Of a stretch of 63,663 nucleotides of DNA, positions 1 to 38,500 are shown one piece after another. The notes beneath the pieces were generated by a model. The model was given only the letters and a program-made list of their open reading frames with translations. It was not told where the DNA came from and ran no database searches. The stretch lies in the IMG/VR virus record IMGVR_UViG_3300021354_000008, positions 1 through 63,663 of that record; one strand, 5' to 3'. The position numbers and the translations under genes are program-made. Position 1 is the stretch's first letter. Each line of letters starts with the position of its first letter. The stretch is from a virus. Taxonomy: Duplodnaviria > Caudoviricetes.

Positions 1-89
1 GTCATATAGTGTATAACATCTCCATCATATCTAATACTATAAGGAAATATAGGCATTCCTTCTTTGAATATAATTACTAATGTATGCAT
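1..89 (-). CDS. Partial hypothetical protein (N-terminus MHTLVIIFKEGMPIFPYSIRYDGDVIHYM..., runs off left edge)
   Basis: ATG at 89-87 with an open frame to the window edge. It is preceded by ACAATTAAC, the same leader seen before the 328..744 gene. Not in the ORF track. Confidence 0.5.
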   Translation of the reverse strand, partial: MHTLVIIFKEGMPIFPYSIRYDGDVIHYM

Positions 90-283
90 GTTAATTGTTA
101 TTTAATGCTATATATATGGATTATTGTATAGCGTGATTTAATGTTGTTGTCTAAATGCCTAATATGCCCCTATAACACCTACATCAACTCTTTTACTCAT
201 AGATAAATAATTGATAATCAGTGTGTTAGATGGTTTTTTAATGCCCACCCATACGTGTTGTTAACACCCACCCTGATATATGA

Positions 284-314
284 AAGAAAGCACCCCATTA
301 CAGAGTGCTTTCTT
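284..314 (-). terminator. Probable intrinsic terminator after the 328..744 gene
   Basis: AAGAAAGCAC...GTGCTTTCTT inverted repeat 14 nt past the stop, with a U-rich 3' arm on the minus strand. Confidence 0.55.
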
Positions 315-327
315 AAATAATTGTAGA

Positions 328-744
328 CTATCCAATAGAACTATTGGTGATGTCAGCCATTAAGTCATCAGAGACAGGAGCAAGAGTTAATGGAGCATTA
401 GCAATTGCTGTGAGTACTCTTGAAGTATTGGCAGTGTTCTTAGCACGAGTGATGCTAATACCTTTTACTAATGACAATTGTCCTGCTTCATTCTCTGTAA
501 AGCGAACCTTCCACAATTGGTCTGCATCATAAAGTTTGCAGAACTCATCTTCTGTGTTAACAGCAAAGCCTTTTCCATTGTAAGAAAATACTTTGTACTT
601 CTTGCCAAACAAAGGTGATGCTGTGTTAATTACTTCTTCGCCTGCGTCATTAATCATTGTAGGCTTGTACTCACGAACTGTTGGTGTGCAAGTGATAAAG
701 TCTACGTCTTCGCCTTGGATAGTGAACTCTCTTAAATTTTCCAT
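328..744 (-). CDS. Hypothetical protein, first gene of the divergent (probably early/replication) arm
   Basis: 138-aa ORF with A-rich leader and downstream hairpin; no family recognised. Confidence 0.75.
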   Translation of the reverse strand: MENLREFTIQGEDVDFITCTPTVREYKPTMINDAGEEVINTASPLFGKKYKVFSYNGKGFAVNTEDEFCKLYDADQLWKVRFTENEAGQLSLVKGISITRAKNTANTSRVLTAIANAPLTLAPVSDDLMADITNSSIG

Positions 745-781
745 TGTTAATTGTGTTTTATGGAATTAGCCAAGTTATATT

Positions 782-922
782 GAATGGGGGGACTACCCCA
801 ACCTTGGCAAGATGTGGAGGGGTTGCAATAGGAAGTAGGCTACTCCCCCATGGACATAATAAGAATGGGGGCTAGTAGAAAATTTTGGGTGCTAGGGGGG
901 ATGGGTTGATAAGAATGGGGGC
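782..922. repeat. G-rich repeat region: ATAAGAATGGGGGC x2 (859-872, 909-922) and GAATGGGGG x3
   Basis: Exact 14-bp direct repeats 50 bp apart, a third core at 782-790, and several G4-G6 runs in an otherwise AT-rich genome. Confidence 0.75.
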
Positions 923-960
923 ATGCTAAAAAAATTGTGTACATAGTCAAAGCAGGGGAT

Positions 961-1220
961 AGTTCCATGAGGAACCTTTTTGCATGAATTTTTCCAAGTT
1001 TTCATGCAACTGTTATGTCACAGTTTTTCAAATATTTGTGACATATTTATATGGTTATTTGTTACAGACACTTCCTGATTTGTCAACCTATAGCTTTACT
1101 TTAGTTTACATATTGTAAAGGTATTGCTTTACATAATGTGTATTATAAGGGACATGCTTAACCTAGGAGTGTCCTTTATAAGGGACATTATAATATGTTG
1201 CTGTACCAAGATTATAATCC
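961..1220. repeat. Array of distinct dyad-symmetric (operator-like) sites, including a parS-like site
   Basis: GTTCC-N4-GGAAC (962-975); TTGCATGAA-N12-TTCATGCAA (980-1009); TATGTCACA-N14-TGTGACATA (1014-1045); GTAAAG-N6-CTTTAC (1115-1132, variant 1082-1099); two copies of a TGTCCCTTATAAGGGACA-like palindrome (1136-1155, 1169-1188); GATTATAATC (1210-1219). Confidence 0.75.
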
Positions 1221-1235
1221 CTTGTCAAAAATAAA

Positions 1236-1268
1236 TTTGGTAGGTAATTATTTTTACCTGTATCTTTG
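1236..1268 (+). promoter_or_regulatory. Bacteroidota sigma-A type promoter for the 1319 gene
   Basis: TTTG (1236-1239), 21-nt spacer, TATCTTTG (1261-1268); matches the -33/-7 consensus. Confidence 0.75.
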
Positions 1269-1318
1269 AGGGTGGAGGGTGGGGAATAAACTCCACATCT
1301 CGTCAAACAAGCTTAGAT

Positions 1319-1564
1319 ATGATAGTCGTACAAATACTGGTGTATATATTAGTGTTACTTATAGTGGCTGTAATAGGATGGGGATTCTACTACTTCGATG
1401 AATGGGAGATAGGAATAGAGTTTATGCCTACAGACTTTAATAACTTTGAATTAGGTGTGTCCAATAGAAACTACTATAGAGATGATGACACACTCGAACA
1501 AGAACTCAGGATTGGGCTGTTGCTTTTTTGCTTTATAGCCATCTTCAGAAAATTTGAAGCATAA
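1319..1564 (+). CDS. Small membrane protein (N-terminal TM helix plus a second hydrophobic segment)
   Basis: VVQILVYILVLLIVAVIGWGFYYF and IGLLLFCFIAIF hydrophobic stretches; has its own promoter. Confidence 0.65.
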   Translation: MIVVQILVYILVLLIVAVIGWGFYYFDEWEIGIEFMPTDFNNFELGVSNRNYYRDDDTLEQELRIGLLLFCFIAIFRKFEA

Positions 1565-1600
1565 TATAGCATTAACTTTCCTCATAACTAAAATAGTTAT
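1561..1600. promoter_or_regulatory. Operator-like boxes A (reverse of AAAGTTAATGCTATATTAT, 1561-1579) and B (ATAAC-N7-GTTAT, 1584-1600)
   Basis: Box A is a 19-bp exact inverted copy of 8654-8672. Box B is a palindrome that recurs at 18059, 18081 and 32946. Confidence 0.65.
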
Positions 1601-1630
1601 TTGTAGATAGAGGATATGTGTTTACCTTTG
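1600..1630 (+). promoter_or_regulatory. Bacteroidota-type promoter for the wHTH-terminase-portal operon
   Basis: TTTG (1600-1603), 19-nt spacer, TACCTTTG (1623-1630). Confidence 0.8.
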
Positions 1631-1644
1631 TGTGTCAACTAATT

Positions 1645-2004
1645 ATGGAAACTAAACCAATACAACCAATTGTACAGCGACTGAAGACATCAGTGAAGAG
1701 TGAGATAGCTATGGCTGAGAAGTATTACAAGCTATTGTCAGATGTCAATGAACTAAAGCTTACAAAAAGGGAAATACAGCTTACAGCCTTTACAGCTATA
1801 AAGGGTAATATATCCTATGCTAATATAAGGAAGGAGTTTTGTGAGAACTATAACAGTACACCAGCTGCTATGAACAACATCATTAGTAGATTAAAGAAGC
1901 TAGGAGTGTTTGTAAAGGATGGAACAAAGGTGAAGGTGAACCCCATCATTCTCCTAAACTTCGAGAAGAATATTGTATTACAAATAACTTTAATACATGG
2001 ATAA
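1645..2004 (+). CDS. Putative winged helix-turn-helix DNA-binding protein
   Basis: LTKREIQL...RKEFCENYNSTPAAMNNIISRLKKLGVFVKDG..VKVNP wHTH pattern. Start moved to ATG 1645 because the called GTG at 1618 lies inside the promoter. Confidence 0.65.
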   Translation: METKPIQPIVQRLKTSVKSEIAMAEKYYKLLSDVNELKLTKREIQLTAFTAIKGNISYANIRKEFCENYNSTPAAMNNIISRLKKLGVFVKDGTKVKVNPIILLNFEKNIVLQITLIHG

Positions 2005-2398
2005 GCCAATAAGTATGTCTGTAAAGGATTACTTAGTTAGAACCTTGGCTGTGAAGATGATGGTGTCTGAGAAGACAATTGAGACAGTGGTGAACCACCA
2101 GTTTCAGTCTGCCAATGAAGCTATGGATGTAAACAATAGTATAGAGATATCTGGGTTTGGTAAGTTCTTCTTCAACCATAAGAAAGCTGCAAAACGACTA
2201 GAATCATTAACCAATAAAAAGACAAACTTAGAATATATACTTTCAGATGATAATGCATCAAGCCAAAAGAAGCACTCATCTAAGGTGACACTAGAGAAAA
2301 CAGAAGCATTGATCAACTTGCTTAAAACTAAAATTACATATGAAGATCAACTTCTCTCAGATATACGAGGGGTGGAAGAACAACCTATTTCCAGCTGA
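1997..2398 (+). CDS. HU/IHF-like DNA-binding protein with C-terminal coiled extension
   Basis: LVRTLA..MMVSEKTIETVV...IEISGFGKF signature. Confidence 0.7.
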   Translation: MDKPISMSVKDYLVRTLAVKMMVSEKTIETVVNHQFQSANEAMDVNNSIEISGFGKFFFNHKKAAKRLESLTNKKTNLEYILSDDNASSQKKHSSKVTLEKTEALINLLKTKITYEDQLLSDIRGVEEQPISS

Positions 2399-2681
2399 TG
2401 ATATGAAAGCTCACATTAGAGCTGTCAGTGAGGAAAGACTAGCCATCTGTGACGCTTGTGAATGGTGTTCTGAAAACAAGCCAAAGAAACCTAGAAGGTT
2501 TGACAAACATTGCACACATTGTGGATGTACACTCTCAGCAAAAACGAAATGCTTATCTTGCTCATGCCCAATTGAAAAATGGGTGGCAGAGATGGAATCT
2601 AAAGAAGAAGATAATCTAATAAATGTAATATATGGAGAGGGAAGTAAAGATAGAAAAGATACCACTGAGCAGGCTAATTGA
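2340..2681 (+). CDS. Cys-rich zinc-binding protein
   Basis: ERLAICDAC...CTHCGC..AKT....SCPIEKW. Confidence 0.7.
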   Translation: MKINFSQIYEGWKNNLFPADDMKAHIRAVSEERLAICDACEWCSENKPKKPRRFDKHCTHCGCTLSAKTKCLSCSCPIEKWVAEMESKEEDNLINVIYGEGSKDRKDTTEQAN

Positions 2682-2889
2682 TACGCTTGTTGAACTCTAT
2701 AATAAGGGGGTGGATTATATTGACATAGCTGGTGTTCCTGGTGTTGAGCAGGACAGAATGGCTATAGTGTTTACCAGAGATTATATGTCAGAAGAAGGAG
2801 TAAATAACTTTGAAGAAGGTGATGAAGAGATAGACTTAGAGATAAAACAACATAAAATAACTGATGAGGATCTAAATGAATTAATATGA
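2632..2889 (+). CDS. Hypothetical acidic protein
   Basis: 85-aa ORF coupled to its neighbours. Confidence 0.65.
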   Translation: MEREVKIEKIPLSRLIDTLVELYNKGVDYIDIAGVPGVEQDRMAIVFTRDYMSEEGVNNFEEGDEEIDLEIKQHKITDEDLNELI

Positions 2890-3170
2890 GTAAAAAGACT
2901 CCCTACATAGAAGTCATTACTATTCTGCAAGAACTACATAATAGTTTTCCAACATATAATCTTGGAAGACATCTAGCTACAGCTTTGGCAGATTATGGTG
3001 ATATCTGGGGATTAACAGATAAAGAGCTTGTATTTGCTCTAAGCAAATATAAAGCTGAAATAGAAATGGATATTCCTCATACAGATGAGTCTGAATTAGA
3101 AAAAATAATAAAAGAGGGAATGGACCTCGATAACATCCTCAAGGAGGAGGAAGAAGATGGCATCTATTAA
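2886..3170 (+). CDS. Hypothetical protein
   Basis: 94-aa ORF with ATGA overlap. Confidence 0.7.
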   Translation: MSKKTPYIEVITILQELHNSFPTYNLGRHLATALADYGDIWGLTDKELVFALSKYKAEIEMDIPHTDESELEKIIKEGMDLDNILKEEEEDGIY

Positions 3171-3489
3171 AAAAACTACATATGTAAATACAGAGCTTGA
3201 ATGGGCTGAACAACAGCTTATTTCATGGAAAGCTTATGTAAATGCAAATCCACTACATGAGTTGAAAGACAGAATTGAGTGGAAACCTACAGCTAAAGGA
3301 GGAATGTTACCTATGGTCATAGCCTCTATAGAAGCACAAGGTAAGTTTGTACAAGAAACAATGAAAAACTACTTAGCCTTAGTGGAGGTGGTAGATAAAT
3401 TAAGGAGTGCTGAAGAAGCTAAGGTGGAGATTAGAGGTAAGGGTGAGTTATCTGGATCTGCTGAAGAGTTCCTTAAAAACAGACGATGA
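3157..3489 (+). CDS. Hypothetical helical protein, candidate terminase small subunit
   Basis: Coupled (ATGA) to TerL, with a helical C-terminus ending ..KVEIRG..; TerS call is by position only. Confidence 0.45.
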   Translation: MASIKKTTYVNTELEWAEQQLISWKAYVNANPLHELKDRIEWKPTAKGGMLPMVIASIEAQGKFVQETMKNYLALVEVVDKLRSAEEAKVEIRGKGELSGSAEEFLKNRR

Positions 3490-5525
3490 ACATACAAACT
3501 ATAGACTACAAGGAGTGGTTCATCAATCAAAAAAGGATACCTGATAGAAATAGTGAAGAGTCAAAACCTTTTCATGATTTTCATAGAGATCTTTGTTTGA
3601 ATGGTGCAATGATGGGTGGGGTTTATATTAACCCCTTTCTTTATTGGCACCTAAACATCTGGCACACAGAGGTAGACGTAATTGATAGTTATGGGAGGAT
3701 TGCACAGAAATATGCCAATCCCCTATTGAGAGATAATGAGTGGCTTGTGACGAACGAAATTGACAGAGCTCAACAAGAAAAGAGGGGCTTAGTTATTCTA
3801 GGTATTAGACGTTTTGCCAAGTCAGTTTTAGAAGCATCCTATATTGCATGGGGTGCAACCTTTGATGAGAACAGTCAGAATATTATTGCAGGCTTAAATG
3901 CCCCAGATATTAAACTGATCACTGATAAGATTGACAAAGGATTGAATTTCATTCCTGAGTATTGGAGATGGCAGAGAATTGAGGACAACTGGAAGAACCA
4001 AGTGACTCTGGGTATAAAGACTAGGTCTGGTGAACGTATCCCATTCTCTTCCATTCTAATACGTAACTTAGATGAAGGTAATAATGAAGAGGCAATTGCA
4101 GGTACAAAACCACGTAAATTAATTATAGATGAGATTGGTAAAGGTAATTTCCTTAGAGGTCTACAGGCAGCTATTCCTGGTTTCACTACACCCTTTGGCT
4201 GGGGATGTAGCCCCATTCTTACTGGGACTGGTGGGGACATGAAGAAATTCATGGATGCTAAATCCTTGATGTTTGATGTAGATAACTTTAATTTCCTTAC
4301 ATATAATAATAGTAAAGATGATAAACGCATACATGGTTTGTTCATCCCAGCTAAGTATAGAATGGAGGCAAAAGAAGATTCTACATTAGGAGCATACTTA
4401 AATGAACCTGCTGGTTCAGATGTACATAAAGTTAAAATGCTTGTTAGTAATGAAGAAAAAGCTATTCAAATAACTAATACTAATTTAGAAAGACTTAAAA
4501 AAGCTGGAGATAGAATAGCTTATTTAAAAGAAAAGATGTATTACCCAATGGAGGTAGATGATATTTTCTTAAATGAGGATACTAATATCTTTGATATTGA
4601 GGCTGCTAAGAGACAGAAGTTTAGATTATTACAACAAGAAAAAACAGGAGTTCCTGTTATATTGTTTAATGATGGTGAGAAGATAGCTCATGAGTTTACA
4701 GATAAGCTACCTATATCAAACTTCCCTTTAAAGAACTCAGATCTTAAAGAAGCACCTGTCGTAATATATGAATTCCCTATAGACAATCCTCCTTATGGAT
4801 TGTATGTAGCAGGAGTCGATCCATATAGACAAGGTAAATCAGCATACAGTTCCTCATTGGGAGCTGTATATATTTATAAGAGGATGCATGAAATTTCAGG
4901 AGAGAAATATCAGGATATGTTCGTAGCTTCGTATGTAGCTAGACCTGAAAAGAAAGAAACTTGGGAAGAACAAGCTAGACTTCTTATCAAGTATTATAAT
5001 GCTAGAGCTCTTTGTGAGAATGATGATATATCTTTTATTGAATATATGAAGAGTAAAGGAGATGCTCATTATCTAGAGAAACAACCTGAATGGCTGAAAG
5101 AGATTGTACCAAATACCACTGTAAAAAGAGATTATGGTATTCATCGTTCTGCTGCAAAGATCATTGACTATCTACATACATGTCTTAAGAAATATATGGA
5201 AGCTGCTATATTTAAAGAGAAGAATGAAGCAGGTGAAGTGATTAGAGAAGTGTTAGGTGTGAGTAAGATATTTGATCCTGTACTACTTGAAGAGATTATT
5301 CAGTACAATGATCAAGGTAACTTTGATAGAATTGTAGCTGCAGAACTAGCCATAGCACAAGCTTTGAAGATGGACCCAATTATGGGAAAGATAGGTGGGA
5401 CATCAGATGAAAGAGTGGCATCTATGTTTAAGAAGAAGAGAGGAAACATACTCTTCACTGATGCTAGGAATAATATGTTTGGACAATCAAAAAATAAATA
5501 TAAACGCAATAAATTGTTTTCATAA
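3486..5525 (+). CDS. terL: Terminase large subunit (crAss-like)
   Basis: Walker A-like GIRRFAKS, Walker B LIIDEIG, motif III TGTGG, RNase H-like nuclease AGVDPY...DRIVA; lies upstream of portal. Confidence 0.92.
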   Translation: MNIQTIDYKEWFINQKRIPDRNSEESKPFHDFHRDLCLNGAMMGGVYINPFLYWHLNIWHTEVDVIDSYGRIAQKYANPLLRDNEWLVTNEIDRAQQEKRGLVILGIRRFAKSVLEASYIAWGATFDENSQNIIAGLNAPDIKLITDKIDKGLNFIPEYWRWQRIEDNWKNQVTLGIKTRSGERIPFSSILIRNLDEGNNEEAIAGTKPRKLIIDEIGKGNFLRGLQAAIPGFTTPFGWGCSPILTGTGGDMKKFMDAKSLMFDVDNFNFLTYNNSKDDKRIHGLFIPAKYRMEAKEDSTLGAYLNEPAGSDVHKVKMLVSNEEKAIQITNTNLERLKKAGDRIAYLKEKMYYPMEVDDIFLNEDTNIFDIEAAKRQKFRLLQQEKTGVPVILFNDGEKIAHEFTDKLPISNFPLKNSDLKEAPVVIYEFPIDNPPYGLYVAGVDPYRQGKSAYSSSLGAVYIYKRMHEISGEKYQDMFVASYVARPEKKETWEEQARLLIKYYNARALCENDDISFIEYMKSKGDAHYLEKQPEWLKEIVPNTTVKRDYGIHRSAAKIIDYLHTCLKKYMEAAIFKEKNEAGEVIREVLGVSKIFDPVLLEEIIQYNDQGNFDRIVAAELAIAQALKMDPIMGKIGGTSDERVASMFKKKRGNILFTDARNNMFGQSKNKYKRNKLFS

Positions 5526-8113
5526 TGGCAATTATAAGATACACGAAAGACGCAACCATAAGATATGCCTACCTGAATATCTTTCCTGATCAGTTTAAAA
5601 CTGAGAAGGAAAAGATGGATGAAAGTTGGATAAAGAATACAATGGACTACTTTGCAAATAAAGCTTATGCTGAATATGTTAAAGCTAGAGATACCTTTGT
5701 TAAGAACTATGATTTAGTAAAAGGTATATTAAGAAGAGAAGATTTTTATGTAGAACCAGAGGTTAGAAGTTTTACAGACGTGCTTACAGCAGATCTTGAA
5801 CTACCTGCCTATGTAAAACATTATTCTATAATGACCACTCCTATTAATGAGTTAGTAGGAGAAATATCTAAAAGACCTGATGCATTTCGTGTTAAGGCAT
5901 TTGATGATGATAGTAAAGCTGAAGAGCTAGAGTTTAAAACTGAGATATTAAATAATTATATCATAAGTGAGGCCAAACAAAAGATACAACAACAGGCTAT
6001 GCTTGATGGACAAGAAATTGATCCTGAAGAGCTAAACAAAATGACTATTGATCAAGTTAAAGATGAATTAGATTCTTATACATCTATTGCAGAGAAATGG
6101 GCTAACCATATTCTTACATGTCAAAAGGCTGAGTTTAATCTTAAAGAAAAAGGGGAAGATTCTTTTAGAGATCTATTAATCTCTGCTAGAGAATTCTTCC
6201 ATGTCTATGAGGATAATTCAAAGCTTGGTTTTAATATAGAGGTAGCTAATCCTAAGAATACTTGGTTCTTAACTACTCCTGATAGAAAATGGATTTCAGA
6301 TGTTACAGGTAGAGCACAAGGAGCATATGCTGCTGGTACTGTACAGGTAATGGAACTATCTGAAATTATTGAGGCAGTGCCTGATCTTACTAAAGATGAG
6401 ATTGATCACTTGCGTTCTTCATTACAAGACTATGGTCTTATTAATGTACGTGAATCTAATTTAGGTAACCCTAATGCTATTCCAGGTCAAGACTCTGTAC
6501 AATATGATACATATGATCCATTAGTTCTTCAAACTAGAATGATCATTGAATCTGAAATGAAAGAGAACAATGATGGTCTTAAGGATTTCTTAGGGCTAAC
6601 TTCTAATGTTAGTAGCTTTGGTTACAAGTATGTAGTGGTAAGATCCTATTGGATTAGTAAAAAGAAAATAGGTAAAGTAATTTACTTAGATGAGATGGGT
6701 AATGAACAATCTATGTTAGTAGATGAGAATTACAAATCTGGAAATATTCCTACACAAGAATCATTAGAATGGGGATGGATTAACCAATGGTATCAAGGTA
6801 TCAAGATTGGTCCAGATATCTATCACATTAAACCTTATAAGTTATTACCTTATTGTCCAATCATTGGTCAAACATTTGAGGTGAAGAATACAGAAGCTAG
6901 AAGCTTGGTAGATATGATGAAACCTTTCCAAGTAATATATAATGTTTGTATGAACCAATTATATAAGTTACTTGAGAAAGAAGTTGGTAAGGTGCAATTA
7001 ATGTCTATTAGACATATTCCTATTCCTAAAGATGGGGATGCACAAGATGCATTAGATATCTGGGAAATGGAAGCACGTAATAGAGGAGTTGTATTTGTTG
7101 ATGATAGTCCAGAGAACTTAAAGAGTCCATCTAGCTTCAATCAATATACTAGCTTAGACCTTACACGTACTACAGAGATCCAAGCAAGATATACTCTAGC
7201 ACAACAGATAAAGAATGAGTGTTGGGAATTAATTGGTATGTCTAAGCAAAGACTTGGATCTGTATCTGCTAGTGAATCAGCTACAGGTACTAATGCAGCT
7301 ATCACTCAATCTTATTCTCAAACAGAACCATTGTTTGTAGCACATGAATATATTATGGGGCAATTATATCAAGCTGTTATTGATGCAGCTTTATATGTAG
7401 AAAGTGCTAAACCTCAATCTACTATTTCTTACATTACTTCTGAAGGAGAATCTGCATTTGTAGCTGTAAATGGTACAGACTTAAAGTTCAGAGACTTAAA
7501 AGTATTCTTAACTAATAGACCAGAAGATAAGAAAATGTTTGATGAGATTAGAGGATTATCTCAAGCTGTTATTCAAAATGGTGGTAGCTTATATGATGTA
7601 ATTGAATTGTACAGTACTAACTCTGTACGTCAAATGAAGAAAGTATTTAAGACTCTTAAAGAAAGACAAGAGCAAATGCAAGATCAACAAATGCAATTAC
7701 AGCAACAGCAATTACAGCAACAACAACAACAAGCTCAAGCTCAAATTGAAGCTGCACAACAAGAAGTACAAGAGAAGATGGCTCATGATGATTATCAAAA
7801 TGAGTTAGATAGAATCAATAAGAAAGAAATTGCTCTTATTGCAGCTGAATCTAAGTCAGGTCCTTTATCAGATATTGATAAATCAGGAACTCCTGATGTA
7901 TTGGAAATCAATAAGTTAGCTACTGAACAAACAAAAGCTATGAGAGACTATGACAGTAAGATGTCTGAGATTGAATCTAAGAATAAACAAGCTGCTAATA
8001 AGTTAGCTATTGAAAAAGAAAAATTAAAAGTAGATAGAGAGAATCAAGCAAATGATTTAGCTATAGCTAAATTAAATGCTAAGAACAGAGCAAGTAGTAA
8101 GAAAACTAAATAA
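5525..8113 (+). CDS. Portal protein (crAss-like)
   Basis: 862 aa directly after TerL; KHYSIMTTPINELVGE, SLVDMMKPFQVIYN, LIGMSKQRLG motifs; Gln-rich coiled C-terminal barrel. Confidence 0.9.
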   Translation: MAIIRYTKDATIRYAYLNIFPDQFKTEKEKMDESWIKNTMDYFANKAYAEYVKARDTFVKNYDLVKGILRREDFYVEPEVRSFTDVLTADLELPAYVKHYSIMTTPINELVGEISKRPDAFRVKAFDDDSKAEELEFKTEILNNYIISEAKQKIQQQAMLDGQEIDPEELNKMTIDQVKDELDSYTSIAEKWANHILTCQKAEFNLKEKGEDSFRDLLISAREFFHVYEDNSKLGFNIEVANPKNTWFLTTPDRKWISDVTGRAQGAYAAGTVQVMELSEIIEAVPDLTKDEIDHLRSSLQDYGLINVRESNLGNPNAIPGQDSVQYDTYDPLVLQTRMIIESEMKENNDGLKDFLGLTSNVSSFGYKYVVVRSYWISKKKIGKVIYLDEMGNEQSMLVDENYKSGNIPTQESLEWGWINQWYQGIKIGPDIYHIKPYKLLPYCPIIGQTFEVKNTEARSLVDMMKPFQVIYNVCMNQLYKLLEKEVGKVQLMSIRHIPIPKDGDAQDALDIWEMEARNRGVVFVDDSPENLKSPSSFNQYTSLDLTRTTEIQARYTLAQQIKNECWELIGMSKQRLGSVSASESATGTNAAITQSYSQTEPLFVAHEYIMGQLYQAVIDAALYVESAKPQSTISYITSEGESAFVAVNGTDLKFRDLKVFLTNRPEDKKMFDEIRGLSQAVIQNGGSLYDVIELYSTNSVRQMKKVFKTLKERQEQMQDQQMQLQQQQLQQQQQQAQAQIEAAQQEVQEKMAHDDYQNELDRINKKEIALIAAESKSGPLSDIDKSGTPDVLEINKLATEQTKAMRDYDSKMSEIESKNKQAANKLAIEKEKLKVDRENQANDLAIAKLNAKNRASSKKTK

Positions 8114-24600: not shown

Positions 24601-26241
24601 ACTATTGATACAGGGTTCCAAAGAATATTTAATAGTCTTCCTGACCCTGATCCTGAAGTAGTTTTTGGTGGTGATACATTTATTGGTAAGTTTGGTTTTA
24701 AAACTAAATTACCATTCTTTATTGATAACAGAGTGGGAGCTCCTGATGATAGTGATATTTACTATGATGAATTAGCTAATGTGGCTTATCCACAATACTG
24801 GTATTCTTCTAGATCTATCCTATACAATTACTATGTAGGAGAAACATTAATGAAGAACATCATATCAGTGAAAGCTCACTATCTTGATTGTCCTAATGAT
24901 AGTATTGTAGATACTACAACTACATCTACATCTTCTACATCTACATCTACAACTATTGCTGTTGGTACTACTACACAAGGAACACTTAACTATGTTTATG
25001 ATGGAAAGATGTATTTGTTTGCTTATGGTGTACCTTATTTCTATGTAGAGAGTTCTATTAATGTAGACTTACGTCAGGCATTTAATAACTTAGAAGGTGA
25101 CTACTATCCACATGTAAGCTCAGGTATTCCTGATGCATGGTTCCAAGAAAGTAGAGTTCCTATTGCATTTGATAATACTTACTATTATAATACTACCTAC
25201 TCTAAGCAAAACACAGAGAACTATTTCTCTCACTTGCCTACAGACTGGAAGAAACAATTATGTTTTACTTACTTCCCATTCAGAGCAATCTATTCTGATA
25301 AACAAGAAAGCTATAGTGATAATAGAATCAACAGCTGGTTGATTTATCGTCCACTTAACTTCTTTGACTTCCCTCAAAACTATGGTAAGTTAGTATCATT
25401 AGATGGTATACAGAACAGAGCTACATTAGCTAGATTTGAGAATAAGACATTGTTATACAATAACTTGTTAACAATGAATACAAGTAATCCTCAGTCTGCC
25501 TATTTAGGTGGTAATGAGTTATTTGGTAATGCACCTCCTGTTGACTTTGCTGAAACAGACTTAGGATATGTAGGAAGTCAAAATAAAATGTTGCTTAAGA
25601 TACCTCAAGGTCAAGTTACTGTAGATGCCAAGAGAGGACAAATCTTCTTAATTAGTGGTACCCAAGCAGTAGATATATCAGGATTTGGTAGTGGCTTACA
25701 AAGATTCTTTACAGATTATTTAGCCTTTGAGATACTAAGATACTTTCCAACTGTTGATATAGATAATAACTTTAAAGGACTTGGTTTACATGGTGTATAT
25801 GATAGTAACTATGATAGAGTGATTATTACTAAGTTGGATTATATTCCTCATTCTAATAATGTATTGTATGATAGCGTAGCTAAAGAGTTCTATGTATATC
25901 AACCTATAGCTGGTGGAACTGAGGTAAAAAAGATTGTAAGCTTAACAGATTTAGAATACTTCTGTAATAAATCATGGACTTTATCTTTCAATGTAAACAC
26001 AAAAAGCTGGGTAAGTTTCCATTCATATCTACCTAATTTCTATATAGGAGAAAGTAATTTCTTCTATTCTGGTTTAAATGAGGGATGTGATATGACAGCA
26101 ATAGCTGTTACAGAAATTCCTTCTTCTACTACAACAACCACAACAACAACAATAAGATATTGTAACTTGTCTGGTACAGCAGAATTAGTACCTGAACTTT
26201 GTGCATTTGATGGAACAGCAGATTGTACAGATTGTATTTAA
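21580..26241 (+). CDS. Muzzle / tail stabilisation protein (P22 gp10-like), N-terminal part with Cys/Thr-rich insertions
   Basis: GMDLD..ALNA start, VYWTDGLNPRRYINI, GYLRDEVYAF, IRHHKFPD, FGGDTFI, SWTLSF...WVSFHSYLP. Start likely ATG 21580 or 21586. Confidence 0.8.
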   Translation: MDMDGTVNQDTSNVRQEYNLGRVGMDLDSSVNQKQKGKLSYALNAALENFDGNSVNYQNELSNEFCLNFPSGYQVIGNHFIQEKNLHIFFLTNPQTGGSQIGYMNNNDCIYHILCTPIPNTDLTVCATSDCLNFDINYPIQKSVHKITNCSTEVYWTDGLNPRRYINIEQVPYITTYTGSQNCDPIITAVLDCNKLKVQPTFSIPNLQITDIVVGGDLQAGAYQFAIQYCNASGDGYTSYYSVTNPTSIANTEITTPDFNYSVGKSIVVKISDIDITGYFQYFNLAVIKTINGASTVELVGTYNVQDKTRTITYTGQNQTQIPLSLADILEKFPYYDIAQDVTNVQDVIVWDNLTSIDRLNYQKIASQIQLQWETYKLPAGNTYADGFYTANLRGYLRDEVYAFEIVFLLDNGKQTDGFHIPGRTATAADLVPVSNTNADFIGEGTEAPYWKIYNTGSVLTTYPANGDPKIGEAYPYQYGNFAYWESTDTYPCNVDVWGDLANQPIRHHKFPDVLVSPHFESAPIIYAGGQIAPVMQTASAVYPIGVKIDVQQVAFLIQASNLTAAEKASIVGFKIVRGNRSTNKSIIGKGILRNVGKYARTNTATSGNPLDVVPTYFYYPNYPYNDLNKDPFLLEQNNAYNSQCNTYKIAVSTPGVLQYTDCVTGNVATLNFTLSTTQLCSLTVPVVNSGSATITDVTARSYTITASCNVLIGYTDPVSGLGQTVIVGSNNPVTVNSSTVPKYISGCDRYTIVGNNNNKNSQCYPNQLDGFNNEQSRYRQVFNSPETSFGQPTLGSVLKLESVLFGAGRAHFAQVQKHSMYRLLTKQAQVEALNSSKLIADLGGFSATAMFTAYQSYLQIYINGATRRNFAYSFNSISSYDYNADIPNGQGVKQRQLDRYQYVFPGVQSVGDDHDLNNWNRESSVYTKSITTREGVGAVAALPYPNQTPSLVVAGVSQISDNSRFTLSDADNCGSPEYQEDIKVVSYYGSIKTINNGQWGQIYSYQTIDTGFQRIFNSLPDPDPEVVFGGDTFIGKFGFKTKLPFFIDNRVGAPDDSDIYYDELANVAYPQYWYSSRSILYNYYVGETLMKNIISVKAHYLDCPNDSIVDTTTTSTSSTSTSTTIAVGTTTQGTLNYVYDGKMYLFAYGVPYFYVESSINVDLRQAFNNLEGDYYPHVSSGIPDAWFQESRVPIAFDNTYYYNTTYSKQNTENYFSHLPTDWKKQLCFTYFPFRAIYSDKQESYSDNRINSWLIYRPLNFFDFPQNYGKLVSLDGIQNRATLARFENKTLLYNNLLTMNTSNPQSAYLGGNELFGNAPPVDFAETDLGYVGSQNKMLLKIPQGQVTVDAKRGQIFLISGTQAVDISGFGSGLQRFFTDYLAFEILRYFPTVDIDNNFKGLGLHGVYDSNYDRVIITKLDYIPHSNNVLYDSVAKEFYVYQPIAGGTEVKKIVSLTDLEYFCNKSWTLSFNVNTKSWVSFHSYLPNFYIGESNFFYSGLNEGCDMTAIAVTEIPSSTTTTTTTTIRYCNLSGTAELVPELCAFDGTADCTDCI

Positions 26242-26251
26242 ACATAACACA

Positions 26252-27115
26252 ATGACTAAAACAGTAATAATAAGATTAACATGCTCAGGTGGTAGAACAG
26301 GACCATTCAACATTTCTGATGTTCAAGGAAATGTTTTAGGCACTGATGTAACCAAACAAAATCTTATTGATGGTTATACTATCAGTGTGGATGATACTGT
26401 TACTAAGATTATTATAACATCTGTAGGAAAGTGTAATACATCTATAGAAGTTACTATTGGAACTGCCACTATAGAAGAACTTGCTGCTATAACATATAAG
26501 CCTTGTAATACAGCATCTATGTGGAGACACTTAACAGATACAGTGAACTACAATAAATACTATGGTAATGTAGAACCTTACATCATTGAATATCCTTTTT
26601 CTTATCAAAGCAATGATGAGATATTACAGAACGTAATAGATTATAGTAGAGTTTATAACTATCTACCAGATGATGGTACATATAATACAAATAGAAAAAT
26701 AGAGGTTGATAATCAATGGTTTAATAAAGCTGTATTATACAATGGACAACAATCCACAGGTGTACTTGAACTTGTACCAAAGCCTCTTCATAACTTAAAG
26801 CAATACTTAACCTATCCAATATATAACTCAGACAGTAAAACTATATTATATACTAAGTCAGATAACTTCTATAAATACAATACATTCTGGGGATTGGTTA
26901 AAGATAAATACTCTCCTTTATTCTTAACAACATGTTGCTCATTATCATTAGATAAGGTGGTTAATCAAGTTAATATGGATTATGGAAAGAGATCATTTAG
27001 AAAAGAACCTTTAAGAGCTAAAGGATTGAGAGTGAGACACATTCTTGATAATAGCTCTATTTCTCATATAGTGAGTCAATTCATTGTTACACCTGCTCAA
27101 ATCTCTTACAAATAA
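26252..27115 (+). CDS. Muzzle C-terminal part fused to an N-terminal TGPFN domain
   Basis: MWRH..YNKYYG..PYIIE...FNKAVLYNGQQSTG.LEL resembles the C-terminus of crAss-like Tstab; start at ATG 26252 after an A-rich leader. Confidence 0.65.
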   Translation: MTKTVIIRLTCSGGRTGPFNISDVQGNVLGTDVTKQNLIDGYTISVDDTVTKIIITSVGKCNTSIEVTIGTATIEELAAITYKPCNTASMWRHLTDTVNYNKYYGNVEPYIIEYPFSYQSNDEILQNVIDYSRVYNYLPDDGTYNTNRKIEVDNQWFNKAVLYNGQQSTGVLELVPKPLHNLKQYLTYPIYNSDSKTILYTKSDNFYKYNTFWGLVKDKYSPLFLTTCCSLSLDKVVNQVNMDYGKRSFRKEPLRAKGLRVRHILDNSSISHIVSQFIVTPAQISYK

Positions 27116-33025: not shown

Positions 33026-35599
33026 ATGGCATCGTTTACAGATCAAATATCAACCTTTAACCCCTACATCCAACAGCTTCCAGTGGAAGCTATGGTGCAA
33101 GTTGGCCAGCAAAAGCAGGCTCAATACAACCAAGGTGTGCAAAAGATTCAGGGGTATATAGATAATATAGCTGGGATGGATGTTGCAAATGAGGCAGATA
33201 AAGCTTATTTGCAATCTAAGTTAAATCAACTAGGTAACAATCTTAAGACTGTAGCTGCTGGAGATTTCTCAAATCAACAATTGGTCAACTCTGTAGGGGG
33301 TATGGCTAACTCACTTGTTAAAGATCCTACAGTTCAAAATGCTGTATATTCTACACAGGTGTATAGAAAAGGATTATCAGAGATGGAAGCTGCTAGAAAA
33401 GAAGGTAAAACCTCAGCATCTAATATTGATGACTTTAATGAACAAGCTCAAGGTTGGTTAAATAGTAAAACTCCAGGCGAGGTATTTAGAGGGTCTTATC
33501 AACCCTATACAGATGTAAGTAAGAAAGTAATGGATGTAGTTGCTAAATTACATGGAAAAAGCAGCAGTCAAGATATTGCATATGCATACAAAACTAATAA
33601 AGATGGTAGTGTAGATATAGCAGGAGTATTAGATGTAATGAAAAGACAAGGAATTAAAACTGTTGATGAAGGACAAATTCGTACAGCTCTTTCTGCTGTT
33701 TTAGATGCTAATGATTATAATCAATTAGCTATTGATGGTAGATACAATTATAAATCAATTGACCAAGAAGGACTATTAAACTATGCAAATAGTGAATATA
33801 AAAAATCTACAGACTTTGCTAAAGTACAATTAGATAGATTGAATAAGCAATTGTTAATGACTACAAATGCTGGTGAGCAAGAAAAAATAAATAATAATAT
33901 TGCGTACTATCAACAGCAACTAGGAGATCCATCTAAGAACATTAAAGGAACTTTAGATGAAAATTATAATAGAACATTAGAAGAAATATCTACAAATCCA
34001 AAAGCTGCTAAAGGTAGAATTTATACAAAGAACTATTTAGATGGTATTGCAAATGGGTTTGCTTGGTCAGAAGTACAAGATGAAATTCTTGCTAATCCAG
34101 CTAAAGAAAACTTTTGGACAAAAAAGAAATTTGAACAAAACTTAATAGAACATAGAGATCTTCAAAATTATAGAAGTTCTGAATTAGGATTTAAAGAAAG
34201 AGCACAAAGCTTGAGTGAATCAGAGTTTGCTAAAAAGTATGGACCAAATGTTCCTTATTTTAAAACCTCTGGAGATCCTACAACTAATGAACTAACTGCT
34301 TTACAAAACTATACAGACTACAATAATAAACTACAAGATGGTAATGTTGGTATTCTTATGGACTTAGCACAGAAGGGAAGTAGTATTACAACACAACTTA
34401 ACCCTAATAATATTAAAGCTACAATAGCTAAGTATAAGAACAATGAATATACTCCTGCTACTAGCTATGAGAAAGATCAAATGGATAAGTATATTGCTAA
34501 TGAAAACCTATTAGCAAACCAAGAAGCTGTATATAAACATTATGAAGATCAAGCACGTAATGAAGTGACTGGTGGTGTTCCTATGAACAAGTTGGTAGAT
34601 AATGCTATTGCTAAGAAAGGAGTTTTGACTGTTGGTAATCAAGTGTTTACTGCTAGAGAAGTGTATGACTACTTAAGTAAAGAGAGAGAAGAAAGAGGAT
34701 TTCAGGGAGATAAAGGAGGATATCAAATTAAGACTATTAATGATGCAGACTTAACTAGTAAAGAAAGACTCTTAAAGAATGCAATTAAATCTAGATATGA
34801 TAACAGAAAAGGTATCTCTTCTGGGAATGCAACTGTAGATAATTACTTAAGTGACTTTGCACCTGTTATAAGTCAAACCAATGATATTAACAGACAAGTG
34901 TTAACAAAGGTGGCTAATAAGATGGCACCTATCACTGGTGTATTCCAAACACAACAAGCAGCTGTAACATTCAAAGATGATAATGGTAAGAAACAATTTG
35001 TTGGTGATTTAGTAAACATTGCAAAAGCTGATCTTGATCAAAAGACTGGAGACGTAGGATACCAACCTAAGAAGTTAATTGATTTATTGACCAAAGCAAA
35101 TGTTGGAGATGTAGAGATACAGTTCAAGAGAAGTGGTGATAATTACTATGCACAAGTTACAGATAAGACTGATCCAAAAGGAAGTGTACAAATGAAGGTT
35201 GATGCTGACTTTGTAAATAAGAGTAGTGAACTAGGTCCTAGTTATCTAACTCCTAATGCAGATCTATCTGAAACTCTTCTTAGAAATGCTGGAACAACAA
35301 ACATGTTTAAAGATAAAGCACATGCTATGTATCAAACAGGCAAGTTTGGAGGATATGATAATAAAGGAAATAGAACAGTAACTATTCCTATTGCAGCTGA
35401 TTTAGAAAACCAAGGAGGTCAATTATATCCAGTGTTTCGTGTGAAAGGAAAGAATGGAAAAGATATCAACTTCCCATTCCCTTACGCTACTGACAGAACA
35501 GAGTTTGAAACTAAGTATCTACCTTCTTTAACAAATGAAAAAATCATTAGTTTGTTAAAAGCTAAGTATCCCAATATAGAACAATTAATACAATACTAA
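33026..35599 (+). CDS. Putative cargo/ejection protein upstream of vRNAP
   Basis: FNPYIQQLP N-terminus and helical composition; translationally coupled to the RNAP gene. Confidence 0.6.
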   Translation: MASFTDQISTFNPYIQQLPVEAMVQVGQQKQAQYNQGVQKIQGYIDNIAGMDVANEADKAYLQSKLNQLGNNLKTVAAGDFSNQQLVNSVGGMANSLVKDPTVQNAVYSTQVYRKGLSEMEAARKEGKTSASNIDDFNEQAQGWLNSKTPGEVFRGSYQPYTDVSKKVMDVVAKLHGKSSSQDIAYAYKTNKDGSVDIAGVLDVMKRQGIKTVDEGQIRTALSAVLDANDYNQLAIDGRYNYKSIDQEGLLNYANSEYKKSTDFAKVQLDRLNKQLLMTTNAGEQEKINNNIAYYQQQLGDPSKNIKGTLDENYNRTLEEISTNPKAAKGRIYTKNYLDGIANGFAWSEVQDEILANPAKENFWTKKKFEQNLIEHRDLQNYRSSELGFKERAQSLSESEFAKKYGPNVPYFKTSGDPTTNELTALQNYTDYNNKLQDGNVGILMDLAQKGSSITTQLNPNNIKATIAKYKNNEYTPATSYEKDQMDKYIANENLLANQEAVYKHYEDQARNEVTGGVPMNKLVDNAIAKKGVLTVGNQVFTAREVYDYLSKEREERGFQGDKGGYQIKTINDADLTSKERLLKNAIKSRYDNRKGISSGNATVDNYLSDFAPVISQTNDINRQVLTKVANKMAPITGVFQTQQAAVTFKDDNGKKQFVGDLVNIAKADLDQKTGDVGYQPKKLIDLLTKANVGDVEIQFKRSGDNYYAQVTDKTDPKGSVQMKVDADFVNKSSELGPSYLTPNADLSETLLRNAGTTNMFKDKAHAMYQTGKFGGYDNKGNRTVTIPIAADLENQGGQLYPVFRVKGKNGKDINFPFPYATDRTEFETKYLPSLTNEKIISLLKAKYPNIEQLIQY

Positions 35600-38500
35600 T
35601 GGCAGGAACTGATTTGTATCCTATAAAGGAAAACATACAACCAAATTTACCATCACTACCAGTAGGGTCTACTTTACCAATGACTCCTTTTGTTGCTTCT
35701 GAGCAAAGAAAGGATGACTTCCTACCTCCACCTGCTAGTGGCTTGCCTCAGGTTGCCCCTACATTAACAACAGGGGAATTGTATGAGAATAGAAAGTTTG
35801 GTTTATATGATCCTTCTAAAACAGAAGAGCAATATGCTTATGGTCAATCAGCATGGGATAAGGCTGGTAATGGTCTTGCTAAACTTGCTGGTACAACAGC
35901 CACTACATTAGCTAACAATACTGTTGGATTATTATATGGTATGGGAGCAGCTTTAGGAAATCAAAAGTTTTCTTCCCTATATGATAATGACTTCTTTAAG
36001 AAAATGGATGATATTTCTAAAGAAATGGAAAATAGATTTCCTCATTATTATACAACTGCTGAACAAAAAGATCCATTGGCATTAAGTTCTGTATTTACAG
36101 GAAACTTCTTCTGGGATAAGATTGTAAAGAACTTAGGGTTCTCAGCAGGTGCTGCTATTACAGGATTTGCAGCAAGTGCTGGATTAGAAGCATTAGGATT
36201 ATCAAGAGGATTAGTAGCTGCTGGTAAAGGATTGCAAGCACTAGAAGCTACAGAAACTGCTGCTGCTGAAGGTAAAGGAATTGCTGGTGCTATACAAGCT
36301 CTTAAGAATCCAAAGAATACATTAAGTAAGTTTGGTGGTATGTTAGAAGAGTTTGGTACAATTGCTCCAGGTGCTAAGTTCTCAAAAGCTAATCAATTAC
36401 TTTCTGCATATTTAGCAACCACTGGTGAAGCTGGTATGGAAAGTTATCAGAATAAACATCAGTTTATAGATAATGCAAAGAAAGTTTGGAGAGATGAACA
36501 TGGTGGTCAAGATCCTACAGGAGATGACTTACAAAAGATAGAAGACTATGCAGCTCAAGTGGGTAACTGGAGCTTTGCATTAAATACAGCATTACTTACA
36601 GGTACAGAATACATTCAGTTACCAAAGATATTTGGTTCTACATATTCAGGAGAGAAAAGAACTTTGAACAACTTAATCTTTAAAGATTGGTTATGGAAGT
36701 CTGGTCTTCCTGAAAAAGGCTTTGGTAAATTCTTATATCAAGCAAAGAATGTAGGTTCATTATTCTTTAATACAGCAGAAGCATTTGAAGAAGGTGCACA
36801 ATTTGCTATTCAAGAAGGTACCAATAAGTTCTTTGATAAGAAGTATAGAAACAATGAACAAACTAACTTCTGGAACTCTCTTGGAGGAATAGTATCTCCT
36901 ATGCAAGAAGGTGTTATAGGCTATGGTCTTAAGCAAGCTGTGACAACAGACCAAGGTCTTGAGAATATATTATTAGGAGGTTTGTCTGGAGCATTAATGA
37001 CTTCAGGTTTTATTGGTACTAAGACTAATGAAAAAGGAAACATTAGACCTGCTATATTTGAGACAGGTAAGATTGGTGAAAGAGGACTTACAGGATATGG
37101 TGGTGAGCAAGGTAAGTTCTTTGAAGAATCAGTTAAAGCATTAAACTCAGCTAAGTTTAGTGACCTTGTTGATTCTATCAATAGAGGATTAACTCTTTCA
37201 GCAGAACAAGAAACATCTTTAAGAAAAGGAGATATATTACAAAGCAAGGATCTTGAGACAGACTACATGTTAAACTATCTTCTACCAAGAGTTAAATATG
37301 GTGGACATGATATCTTTAATACAGAGATAAATGATGCAAGAGAAAGAGCAGCTACAGATGATGGATTTCGTGGATTGCAAGAACAAGGTATTGCTAATGA
37401 GAATGATACAAGAGAAGCCTTCCTTAAGAGATTAGATAATATTCATAACATGGCTACACAAGTGAATGAGAACTATAACAAGTTCAAAACTTCATATGCT
37501 GGTGTAGTTAAAACTAATGAGAAAGGTGAACCTATTTTAGATGCAGATGGTAAGATACAAAGAAAGTATGATGACAAAACCATAGATAAAATGGTTTACA
37601 CTGTATCTAAAATATTTGATTATAACAATAGAATCCCAGGATTGGTTGGTACATTATCAACTAAAGGAATTCAATCTGATGAGCTTTTAGCTGAAACAAC
37701 ACTTACTGGAAAACCTAGTGTAGAGAAAACAAAAGAAGCTCTCAAAGCTATTAATGAGTTAGATGTAACTGATGATATTAAAGATGAGTTAAAAACAAAT
37801 CTTCAAGATGCATTAGAATTAACTATGCGTAGAAATAACTTCATACGTGAGTTTAATCAAATAAAACAAGACCCTTCCAGTTTTGAAGAAGGAAAAGAAG
37901 AAGGAGTTACCACTGCTAAGATCAAACAAACAGAAGTGGTAAATGGTAAGAATAAAGTGGTTAGTAAAGATGTTGAGGTGGGTAAAGACTACACATTAGC
38001 TGACCCTCTTGCTAGAACTGGTAACACATTAAGTGTTAACCCTACTATTAGTGTATTATCTAAAACATTGAATGGTGAATATGAGGTGAAGCTTCCTGAT
38101 GGAAGTAGAACATTCTTATCTCCTAATCAGTTTGAGCAATACCAAATATCAGAAGCTACACAAGATACAAATACAATAGCTAGCATATTAGATAAAGCTA
38201 TTGACAAAGTATTGGCTAAAGATAAGTATAGTGACTTAGAAAAACCTGAAGAGAATAAATTAGATTATGTTAACTCATTGAATAATAGTGAGTTACTAAA
38301 TGATATTCAAAAAGAATTTGCAGCTGCTTCAAAAGCATACATAGCTCAGAAAGCCAAAGAGACTGAGATTATTAGAAAGAATGATCTTAATAAGGAGTTA
38401 ATAAAAACAGCTGATGAACTTAGTATTCCTACTAAGGAAGAGACAGGAGATTATGAAGTGGATTCTAGAAAGAATGATCAACAAGTAGTTGATAGTTCAA

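Follow-up and report, generated by a model that had tools for sequence, protein, structure and literature searches.

What would a phage gain from packing 260 bp of non-coding DNA with palindromes of several different sequences? The question is raised by positions 961–1220 of the virus record IMGVR_UViG_3300021354_000008, a crAss-like phage sequence of 63.7 kb (about 55% complete), which was analysed over its full 63,663 nt and is referred to here as the window. A sequence-only reading had taken this stretch for a collection of host operators that titrates or recruits host regulators as the phage genome amplifies. At the sequence level, the idea is largely borne out, through operators of the AbiE antitoxin, although for only two of the about eight dyads listed. 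We conclude from sequence comparison that the array very probably holds orphan AbiEi-type operators, i.e. copies of the dyads found in front of host abiEi-abiEii operons. On the entire chain, in which these sites bind AbiEi of the host and titrate or redirect it, our confidence is evenly balanced.

The stretch contains nine perfect dyads (arms of at least 6 nt, spacers of at most 16 nt), compared to an expected 1.37 ± 1.16, and none of 2000 dinucleotide-preserving shuffles reaches nine. No other 260-bp tile of the 63.7-kb window is as dense (the mean over tiles being 1.55) and, in the list of open reading frames (ORFs), no frame of 60 or more residues falls within 961–1220. All dyads named in the sequence-only reading were found in place. 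As that reading had also held, the locus is neither a CRISPR array, since direct repeats of 11–32 nt are present in just two copies and a constant repeat is absent, nor a set of terminators, with one terminator-like site (962–975) against 1.2 expected in shuffles.

Three of the dyads carry the comparison with hosts. The first, TTGCATGAA-N12-TTCATGCAA at 980–1009, is of a type that we denote H1, and the second, TATGTCACA-N14-TGTGACATA at 1014–1045, belongs to the TGTCACA type, H2. The right arm of the second dyad also pairs with a TGTTACA further downstream, giving a hybrid dyad, TGTGACA-N16-TGTTACA (1037–1066), which overlaps 1014–1045 and joins an H2 half-site to an H4 half-site. The region 1014–1066 thus comprises three half-sites that are 21 and 23 bp apart. 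The hybrid is one mismatch away from H4, and the related locus L020 retains the full TGTAACA-N16-TGTTACA form.

Host counterparts of H1 were sought with the pattern TGCATGAA-N12/13-TTCATGCA in one genome per prokaryote species. At least 120 loci match, mostly from scattered phyla and with unrelated spacers, as chance would give. The T-rich spacer of the phage dyad is kept in three loci from Bacteroidota metagenome-assembled genomes (L155, L106 and L176). The L155 sequence is 96.8% identical to window positions 979–1009 over 31 nt; the site in L217/L155, located at about −64 of an AbiEi gene, matches 980–1009 at 29 of 30 positions, covering both the nine-base arms and the spacer. The dyad of L155 is followed after about 18 nt by a TAcaTTTG box, and the AbiEi start lies 37 nt from the dyad. 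This gene encodes a 193-residue AbiEi (PADLOC, E = 7e-80), the next one the AbiEii nucleotidyltransferase toxin (PF08843, E = 2e-29), and the pair is flanked by ordinary chromosomal genes. In L106 and L176, too, the dyad belongs about 37 nt ahead of an AbiEi gene with AbiEii next; the L176 locus is too short to include its AbiEi gene, and AbiEi was found in the same genome. At five of the 120 loci listed, an AbiEi-like ORF is oriented away from the dyad. H1-type dyads also precede AbiEi-like ORFs in two metagenome-assembled loci titled Methylopumilus (L158) and Moraxellaceae (L104), so that this operator type is not confined to Bacteroidota.

The antitoxins are winged-helix repressors (DUF6088 / COG5340-type) of abortive-infection operons. 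Their Pfam family, DUF6088 (PF19570), was detected in 75 of the 401 Bacteroidota genomes sampled. A dyad is present within 130 nt upstream of the DUF6088 gene in 23 of 30 fetched loci, with spans of 27–39 bp (mostly about 28–31), and before the gene in 14 of 20 further upstream stretches; it is absent from the five upstream stretches belonging to a class of short proteins. The dyads are placed just before or over promoter elements, and all six downstream ORFs that were tested encode AbiEii. The host arms are of the types TGTCACA, TGTCCAG, TGTAACA, TGTCAAG, TGTCGCA, (C)GTCCCA, TGTCCCA and TGTCAGA; the full arms read TGTCACAAAT, TGTAACAAAT, TGTCCAGTTT, TGTCAAGT(A/T), TGTCGCAA, TCGTCCCAAAT, TGTCCCAA and ATGTCAGAA. 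Four of these types recur in phage arrays, TGTCACA in the window (1014–1045) and TGTCCAG, TGTAACA and TGTCAAG in its relatives. H2 dyads of the form TGTCACAAAT-N9-ATTTGTGACA precede DUF6088 genes in L231, L248, L250, L254 and L256, with a variant of 6-nt arms in L255, and an H4 operator is found in L247. In L283, a single host DUF6088 promoter has a TGTCAAGT dyad and, 57 nt away, a TGTCCAGTA dyad, two operator types in tandem.

A census was made of one type, H3, which lies almost exclusively at abiEi promoters. Fourteen of the 401 genomes contain a single copy of the pattern TGTCCAGT-N14-ACTGGACA, and none contains a control pattern; eleven of the 14 sites are directly upstream of DUF6088 genes and three are orphans. 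Moreover, the type of dyad follows the antitoxin that it accompanies. Mapping the eight dyad types onto a 23-protein AbiEi tree requires seven changes, the minimum possible, compared to an average of 12.4 for shuffled labels (0 of 200 shuffles as low); as kin share labels, this result demonstrates clustering rather than independent events. From position, the specificity of H3, the co-variation with AbiEi clade and a distant precedent, we infer that the host dyads are AbiEi operators.

The precedent is provided by AbiEi of Streptococcus agalactiae and Rv2827c of Mycobacterium tuberculosis. According to the accessible part of PMC7319586, monomers of these winged-helix antitoxins bind the inverted repeats of their own promoters, one per repeat, and repress their own transcription, and AbiEi bends the DNA. 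The host dyads described here hold the same place relative to abiEi-abiEii. They differ in being dyads of about 30 bp from the DUF6088 subfamily, compared to the 23-bp repeats of the studied systems, and the phage copies differ further in lacking both abiE genes and the host promoter box and in being stacked as mixed types.

How general is the phage side of this similarity? A search with the large terminase returned 477 hits, and 80 related loci were retained. Their 59 distinct upstream sequences contain a family of 28–30-bp dyads, most of which start with TGT and end with ACA. Whereas the spacers drift, the arms of this family (TGCATGAA, TGTCACA, TGTAACA, TGTCCAGTT and TGTCAAGTTT) are conserved. 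Long dyads in the arrays use only five of the 256 possible TGTNNNN arms, and four of these five also serve as host operator arms. The 49 distinct arrays (31.8 kb) contain 38 host-type dyads, compared to two in the 741 kb of these loci that lie outside the arrays, a concentration of about 440-fold. By array, H1 is present in 14 of the 49, H2 in 12, H3 in seven, H4 in three and H5 in two. In both the window and the complete relative G001, exact host-type dyads are restricted to the array.

Blocks of the array are kept piecemeal among relatives, with insertions and deletions between units, and the host types are found in the combinations H1-H2, H1-H3, H1-H2-H5, H1-H4-H2, H2-H4 and H2-H4-H5-H3. 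The shuffling, gain and loss of units that the sequence-only reading had anticipated for related phages is therefore observed. DUF6088 is encoded in none of five near-complete relatives, even at E ≤ 1, and an AbiEi gene is also absent beside the array of the window. The likeness to hosts is limited to the bare dyad, as neither the host −7 box nor the flanks are copied. With the abiE gene and the host −7 box both missing, the phage sites are orphans and not abiE cis operators in the strict sense. They are, as a decoy locus would be, clustered sites without a cognate regulated gene; that the replicon carrying them amplifies is inferred from a lytic phage lifestyle. A second site in relative G002 lies far from the array (L087 1501–1528); this H2-like dyad, TGTCACAATT-N8-AATTGTGACA, is within the first codons, which resemble a signal peptide, of an ORF of more than 520 residues.

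Orphan dyads of these types extend well beyond this phage group. The nine-base-arm H1 dyad of the window is found in 63 viral contigs (a complete count), two of them in this phage group by their marker genes, and none of the 63 sites has an AbiEi-like ORF beside it. H3 is present in at least 120 viral contigs, forming 73 neighbourhood clusters; among the 120 listed, three are in this phage group, one adjoins an AbiEi-like gene, and 84 sites lie in frames open for less than 100 codons. Further host-type dyads are located nearby in 15 of the 63 H1 contigs and in 12 of the 120 listed H3 contigs, often about 34 nt apart from start to start, as in the window. In one contig encoding an integrase, a primase/helicase and RecE (L364), H3, H1 and H4 follow each other head to tail, spaced by linkers of 4 nt. 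A dyad of another kind, (C)AATTCGG-N7-CCGAATT(G), recurs beside AbiEi-type dyads (L335:3430–3452 and L364:12681–12703), with a TAATCGG-N7-CCGATTA form at L323:2466–2486, and may serve regulators from another family.

By analogy with the distant AbiEi homologs at their own promoters, two AbiEi monomers of the infected host would bind each phage dyad. Autorepression probably keeps AbiEi at a low level, so that the one operator on the chromosome would lose out to the replicating phage DNA. AbiEi, perhaps with AbiEii bound, would thus be drawn away from the chromosome. The accessible part of a recent preprint (bioRxiv 10.64898/2026.01.19.700257) describes a stable AbiEi-AbiEii heterodimer, in which the DNA-binding residues are exposed, and neutralization of the toxin by antitoxin-induced auto-phosphorylation. 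The outcome that we prefer is counter-defence, in which the sensor/antitoxin would be held in a DNA-bound resting state or the operon would be derepressed to give an excess of antitoxin, and the repertoire of operator types would track the AbiE variants of the host population. We tentatively extend this scheme, with less confidence than we place in the chain for this phage, to Bacteroidota phages and perhaps those of other phyla. These would carry modular cassettes of orphan operators, each directed at one AbiEi clade, that titrate or immobilize the AbiE sensor/antitoxin, with a repertoire that tracks host AbiE variants. The window dyads outside the AbiEi types may be regulatory sites of the phage itself, or operators of families that were not sampled.

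Clustered sites that regulate no gene and whose influence grows with their copy number are familiar from repressor titration by operator plasmids and from the datA locus of Escherichia coli, which titrates DnaA. There, the sites share a genome with the protein that they bind; here, they are on an invading genome and have several specificities. In phage antitoxin mimicry, a copy or mimic of a host toxin-antitoxin component interferes with the system. DarG-like or TifA proteins borne by phages are examples, and a Pectobacterium phage reportedly carries pseudo-ToxI RNA repeats that act as an antitoxin mimic. The accessible part of a review (PMC13728456) covers protein and RNA cases of such mimicry; in the present case, the copied part would be a DNA operator, acting on the antitoxin-repressor and not on the toxin.

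Several observations weigh against counter-defence by operator titration. The weakest step is the sign of the effect, which could be a benefit to the phage or a trigger of the defence, and it is for this reason that our confidence in the entire chain is no more than balanced. In the accessible part of their preprint, the authors of the heterodimer study speculate that viral DNA sequestering AbiEi could activate the toxin (bioRxiv 10.64898/2026.01.19.700257), which would harm the phage and makes the benefit unclear. That the host dyads act as operators is drawn from position, co-variation and distant precedent, and the host samples comprise 381–401 genomes from one phylum. Of the 49 related arrays, 28 lack all nine host types. 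The TGTCACA and TGTAACA types span 28 or 30 bp in phages, compared to 29 in the sampled hosts; the dyad at 1014–1045 shares the arms of the host TGTCACA type and spans 28 bp as opposed to 29. Both large scans give lower bounds (at least 120 each), and the dyad densities of phages and hosts are therefore not comparable. The position of the array at a strand switch and skew minimum also fits a replication origin (see below).

A further reservation concerns coverage of the window itself, where host counterparts are available for just two dyads and the one hybrid. The expectation of the sequence-only reading that its palindromes would be found at the promoters of autoregulated host genes holds for 980–1009 and 1014–1045, both at abiEi promoters, and for the overlapping third dyad that it had not listed; it fails for the two other kinds that were searched, which match hosts at chance level. 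TGTMAAG-N6-CTTKACA occurs in 28 of 401 genomes, compared to 21 for the control, with 18 of the 28 matches inside ORFs. TGTCCYTTATAARGGACA, allowing one mismatch, occurs in 10 of 381 genomes, compared to 10 for the control, and all ten matches are inside ORFs, seven of them in one conserved gene of 475 codons that, from its N-terminus, we take to be dnaA-like.

Among alternatives, the one that survives best accepts the host interaction and reverses its sign. The dyads would be cis-elements of the phage, either regulatory or origin sites to which phage proteins bind, that host AbiEi and its operators evolved to recognize; phage DNA, on entry or during replication, would strip AbiEi from both its operator and AbiEii and set off abortive infection, and diversification of the phage dyads would represent escape. 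The activation route put forward in the available text of bioRxiv 10.64898/2026.01.19.700257 favours this order of events, as does the conserved key position of the array in a divergent control region at the skew minimum, and the speed at which types change among relatives is compatible with an arms race run in either direction. However, up to four operator types stand side by side in a single phage (L020), and likewise in unrelated viral contigs, which is hard to reconcile with essential sites of the phage itself. A phage protein family of matching diversity was not found, the relatives lacking DUF6088 as described above, and the neighbouring winged-helix protein (1645–2004) is 74–98% identical among the best 120 of its 718 homologs although the array repertoires differ. 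Harmful sites should also be lost, yet these are concentrated about 440-fold. We consider this explanation unlikely.

A second alternative retains binding of the resident AbiEi and removes the effect on defence. AbiEi would be co-opted, in the manner of IHF, as an architectural or regulatory factor for the divergent promoters or the origin of the phage. The array lies about 190–260 bp upstream of a conserved promoter-like site (1236–1268), a gene for an HU/IHF-like protein (1997–2398; PF00216, E = 7e-8) is close by, and bending of DNA by AbiEi, as reported in the accessible part of PMC7319586, would suit such a role. AbiE is too patchily distributed (DUF6088 in 75 of the 401 genomes) to be a requirement for a core function of the phage. 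In addition, the orphan dyads of other viral contigs mostly lack a TAnnTTTG box (six of 120 listed have one) and share no common neighbour gene. Co-option is, in our view, improbable.

We give equally little credence to a replication origin or DNA-structural element, in which the dyads would form cruciforms or single-strand hairpins and their likeness to AbiEi operators would be meaningless. A multi-protein origin had been the alternative of the sequence-only reading. In the 117.6-kb genome of G001, the array homolog (25978–26554) occupies the gap between genes on the − strand (229–25864) and genes on the + strand (26931–94145). The genome has its main switch of strand here, and cumulative GC skew reaches its minimum at the same place, at about 25–26 kb. 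Direct GAATGGGGG repeats and AT-rich dyads would also suit an origin. The accessible text of a preprint likewise predicts origins of the prototypic crAssphage (Carjivirus communis) at the strand switch, the junction of opposed gene blocks where the GC skew changes (PMC10983915). That prediction rests on OriFinder, skew, coverage and a nearby repL; here, neither repL nor another initiator gene was recognized beside the array, and GC skew is confounded by gene orientation. An origin would leave the operator matches unexplained: the sharing of arm sets with host operators (four of five TGTNNNN arms, and 29 of 30 positions for H1) cannot be chance, and single copies of these dyads are found in many other settings.

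Finally, a structured non-coding RNA of several hairpins, like the abundant long intergenic non-coding RNAs of the crAss-like phage phi14:2 (described in the accessible part of bioRxiv 10.1101/2020.03.07.982082), would agree with the predicted folds (−91.4 kcal/mol, z = −5.8, for the + strand; −72.2 kcal/mol, z = −3.8, for the − strand) and with an excess of G:T (33) over A:C (17) among the mismatches of imperfect stems on the + strand, but is scarcely credible, as the best match in Rfam, mir-2001, reaches 22.7 bits where the gathering score is 74, units have been added, dropped and rearranged and do not keep one fold, 95 of 145 stem mismatches are non-wobble and the wobble asymmetry is too weak and too dependent on related sequences, the promoter-like site is downstream of the array, the loops are AT-rich and of 12–16 nt, and the long intergenic region of phi14:2 has no similar dyad family.

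The remainder of the array is made up of dyads of other kinds. GTTCC-ATGA-GGAAC (962–975) opens it and is represented in relatives by TGTTCCAC-GTGGAACA variants. A cluster of CTTTAC/GTAAAG half-sites (1080–1139) includes a direct repeat (1080–1099 and 1113–1132) and the dyads CTTTAC-N15-GTAAAG (1094–1120), TTTACA-TAT-TGTAAA (1105–1119) and TGTAAAG-N6-CTTTACA (1114–1133). It is followed by GGGACA units (1133–1191), comprising a 22-nt inverted repeat, two copies of TTATAAGGGACAT (1143–1155 and 1176–1188) and the near-palindrome TGTCCTTTATAAGGGACA (1170–1187, one imperfect pair). ATTATAAT-N16-ATTATAAT (1187–1218) and GATTATAATC (1210–1219) close the array. Upstream, three GAATGGGGG(C) boxes lie within 779–940, where 859–890 and 909–940 are direct repeats, placing two of the boxes 50 bp apart.

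The array resides in a divergent intergenic region of 574 bp (745–1318 in the ORF list), flanked by genes at 328–744 (− strand) and 1319–1564 (+ strand). The leftward 138-residue gene at 328–744 is swapped for unrelated small genes in relatives: it has no blastn match in any of the 80 related loci, a search with its protein returned no relatives, and L007 has a different ORF of 141 residues in the same slot (L007:3656–4081, − strand). Lying between two long non-coding stretches, the slot looks like a variable accessory position beside the array. In the second of these stretches, L007 has a sequence resembling a tRNA 3′ end, with T-arm and acceptor and an unusually long body (2930–3090, − strand); ARAGORN found no tRNA in the window. 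The contigs of L003, L005, L015 and L057 end within or right beside the array region, and these ends may be assembly breaks at a hypervariable spot. As one relative has direct terminal repeats elsewhere, they are not evidence of a physical genome end. Megablast of window positions 1–5600 against GenBank phages gave no matches, and in three read sets, probably of DNA, the contigs are mostly less than 95% like the window, with the array thinly covered. The window also encodes the large terminase (3486–5525; phrog_6681, E = 1e-84) and a 3723-residue ORF (35599–46770, from the ORF list), which by size and position only is read as a virion RNA polymerase.

The rightward operon has the promoter-like site TTTG-N21-TAtcTTTG (1236–1268, + strand), which is kept across relatives in the alignment. 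We call it Bacteroidota-type from the promoter consensus of Bacteroidetes; window-wide, the pattern is at chance level (three matches compared to 3.6 expected). Directly after this site is a G-rich box (1269–1295) that appears in relatives as GGGTGGAGGGTGGGG or GGGGGGGATTTAGGGGGGG. CCCACCC boxes are also found in the next intergenic stretch (245–275), and in L007 and L335.

The winged-helix protein of 119 residues (1645–2004, + strand), with its own promoter-like site at 1600–1630, was considered as a candidate phage-encoded AbiEi and rejected. It has no match to AbiEi families in Pfam or PADLOC and reaches E = 0.087 by BLASTP against host AbiEi, and PF19570 is likewise absent from the five relatives. 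In a structure search with its fold model (pLDDT, the predicted local distance difference test, of 71), the best PDB match, a weak one, is the N-terminal domain of T4 MotA, followed by MarR-type proteins, and no AbiEi-named entry is among the matches listed. The MotA N-terminal domain is sigma-binding, and the L007 ortholog has sub-threshold Pfam matches to sigma-70 region 1.1 and phage O protein. The protein is a possible transcription factor by which the phage would control its structural operon.

A search of full-text literature, covering few subscription journals, found papers on AbiEi operators and no report of operator copies on phage genomes. The answers to toxin-antitoxin defence that are mentioned in the accessible part of a November 2026 review of phage countermeasures are all proteins or RNAs (PMC13728456). 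Within the literature searched, two results thus appear to be new, namely the putative operator-clade code of DUF6088 AbiEi and the finding that orphan copies are widespread among viral contigs. Whatever the function of the array, both remain as facts at the level of sequence. If counter-defence by operator titration is true, the array would be the first element of phage anti-defence to consist of neither protein nor RNA. Binding of host AbiEi by these sites would mean that phage anti-defence includes plain DNA sites, which are invisible to gene-centred screens, and the activation and evasion of AbiE during infection, presented as an open question in the accessible literature, would become directly testable. 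The operator types would then form a record of the defence variants of the hosts and would aid host assignment of uncultured crAss-like and other phages.

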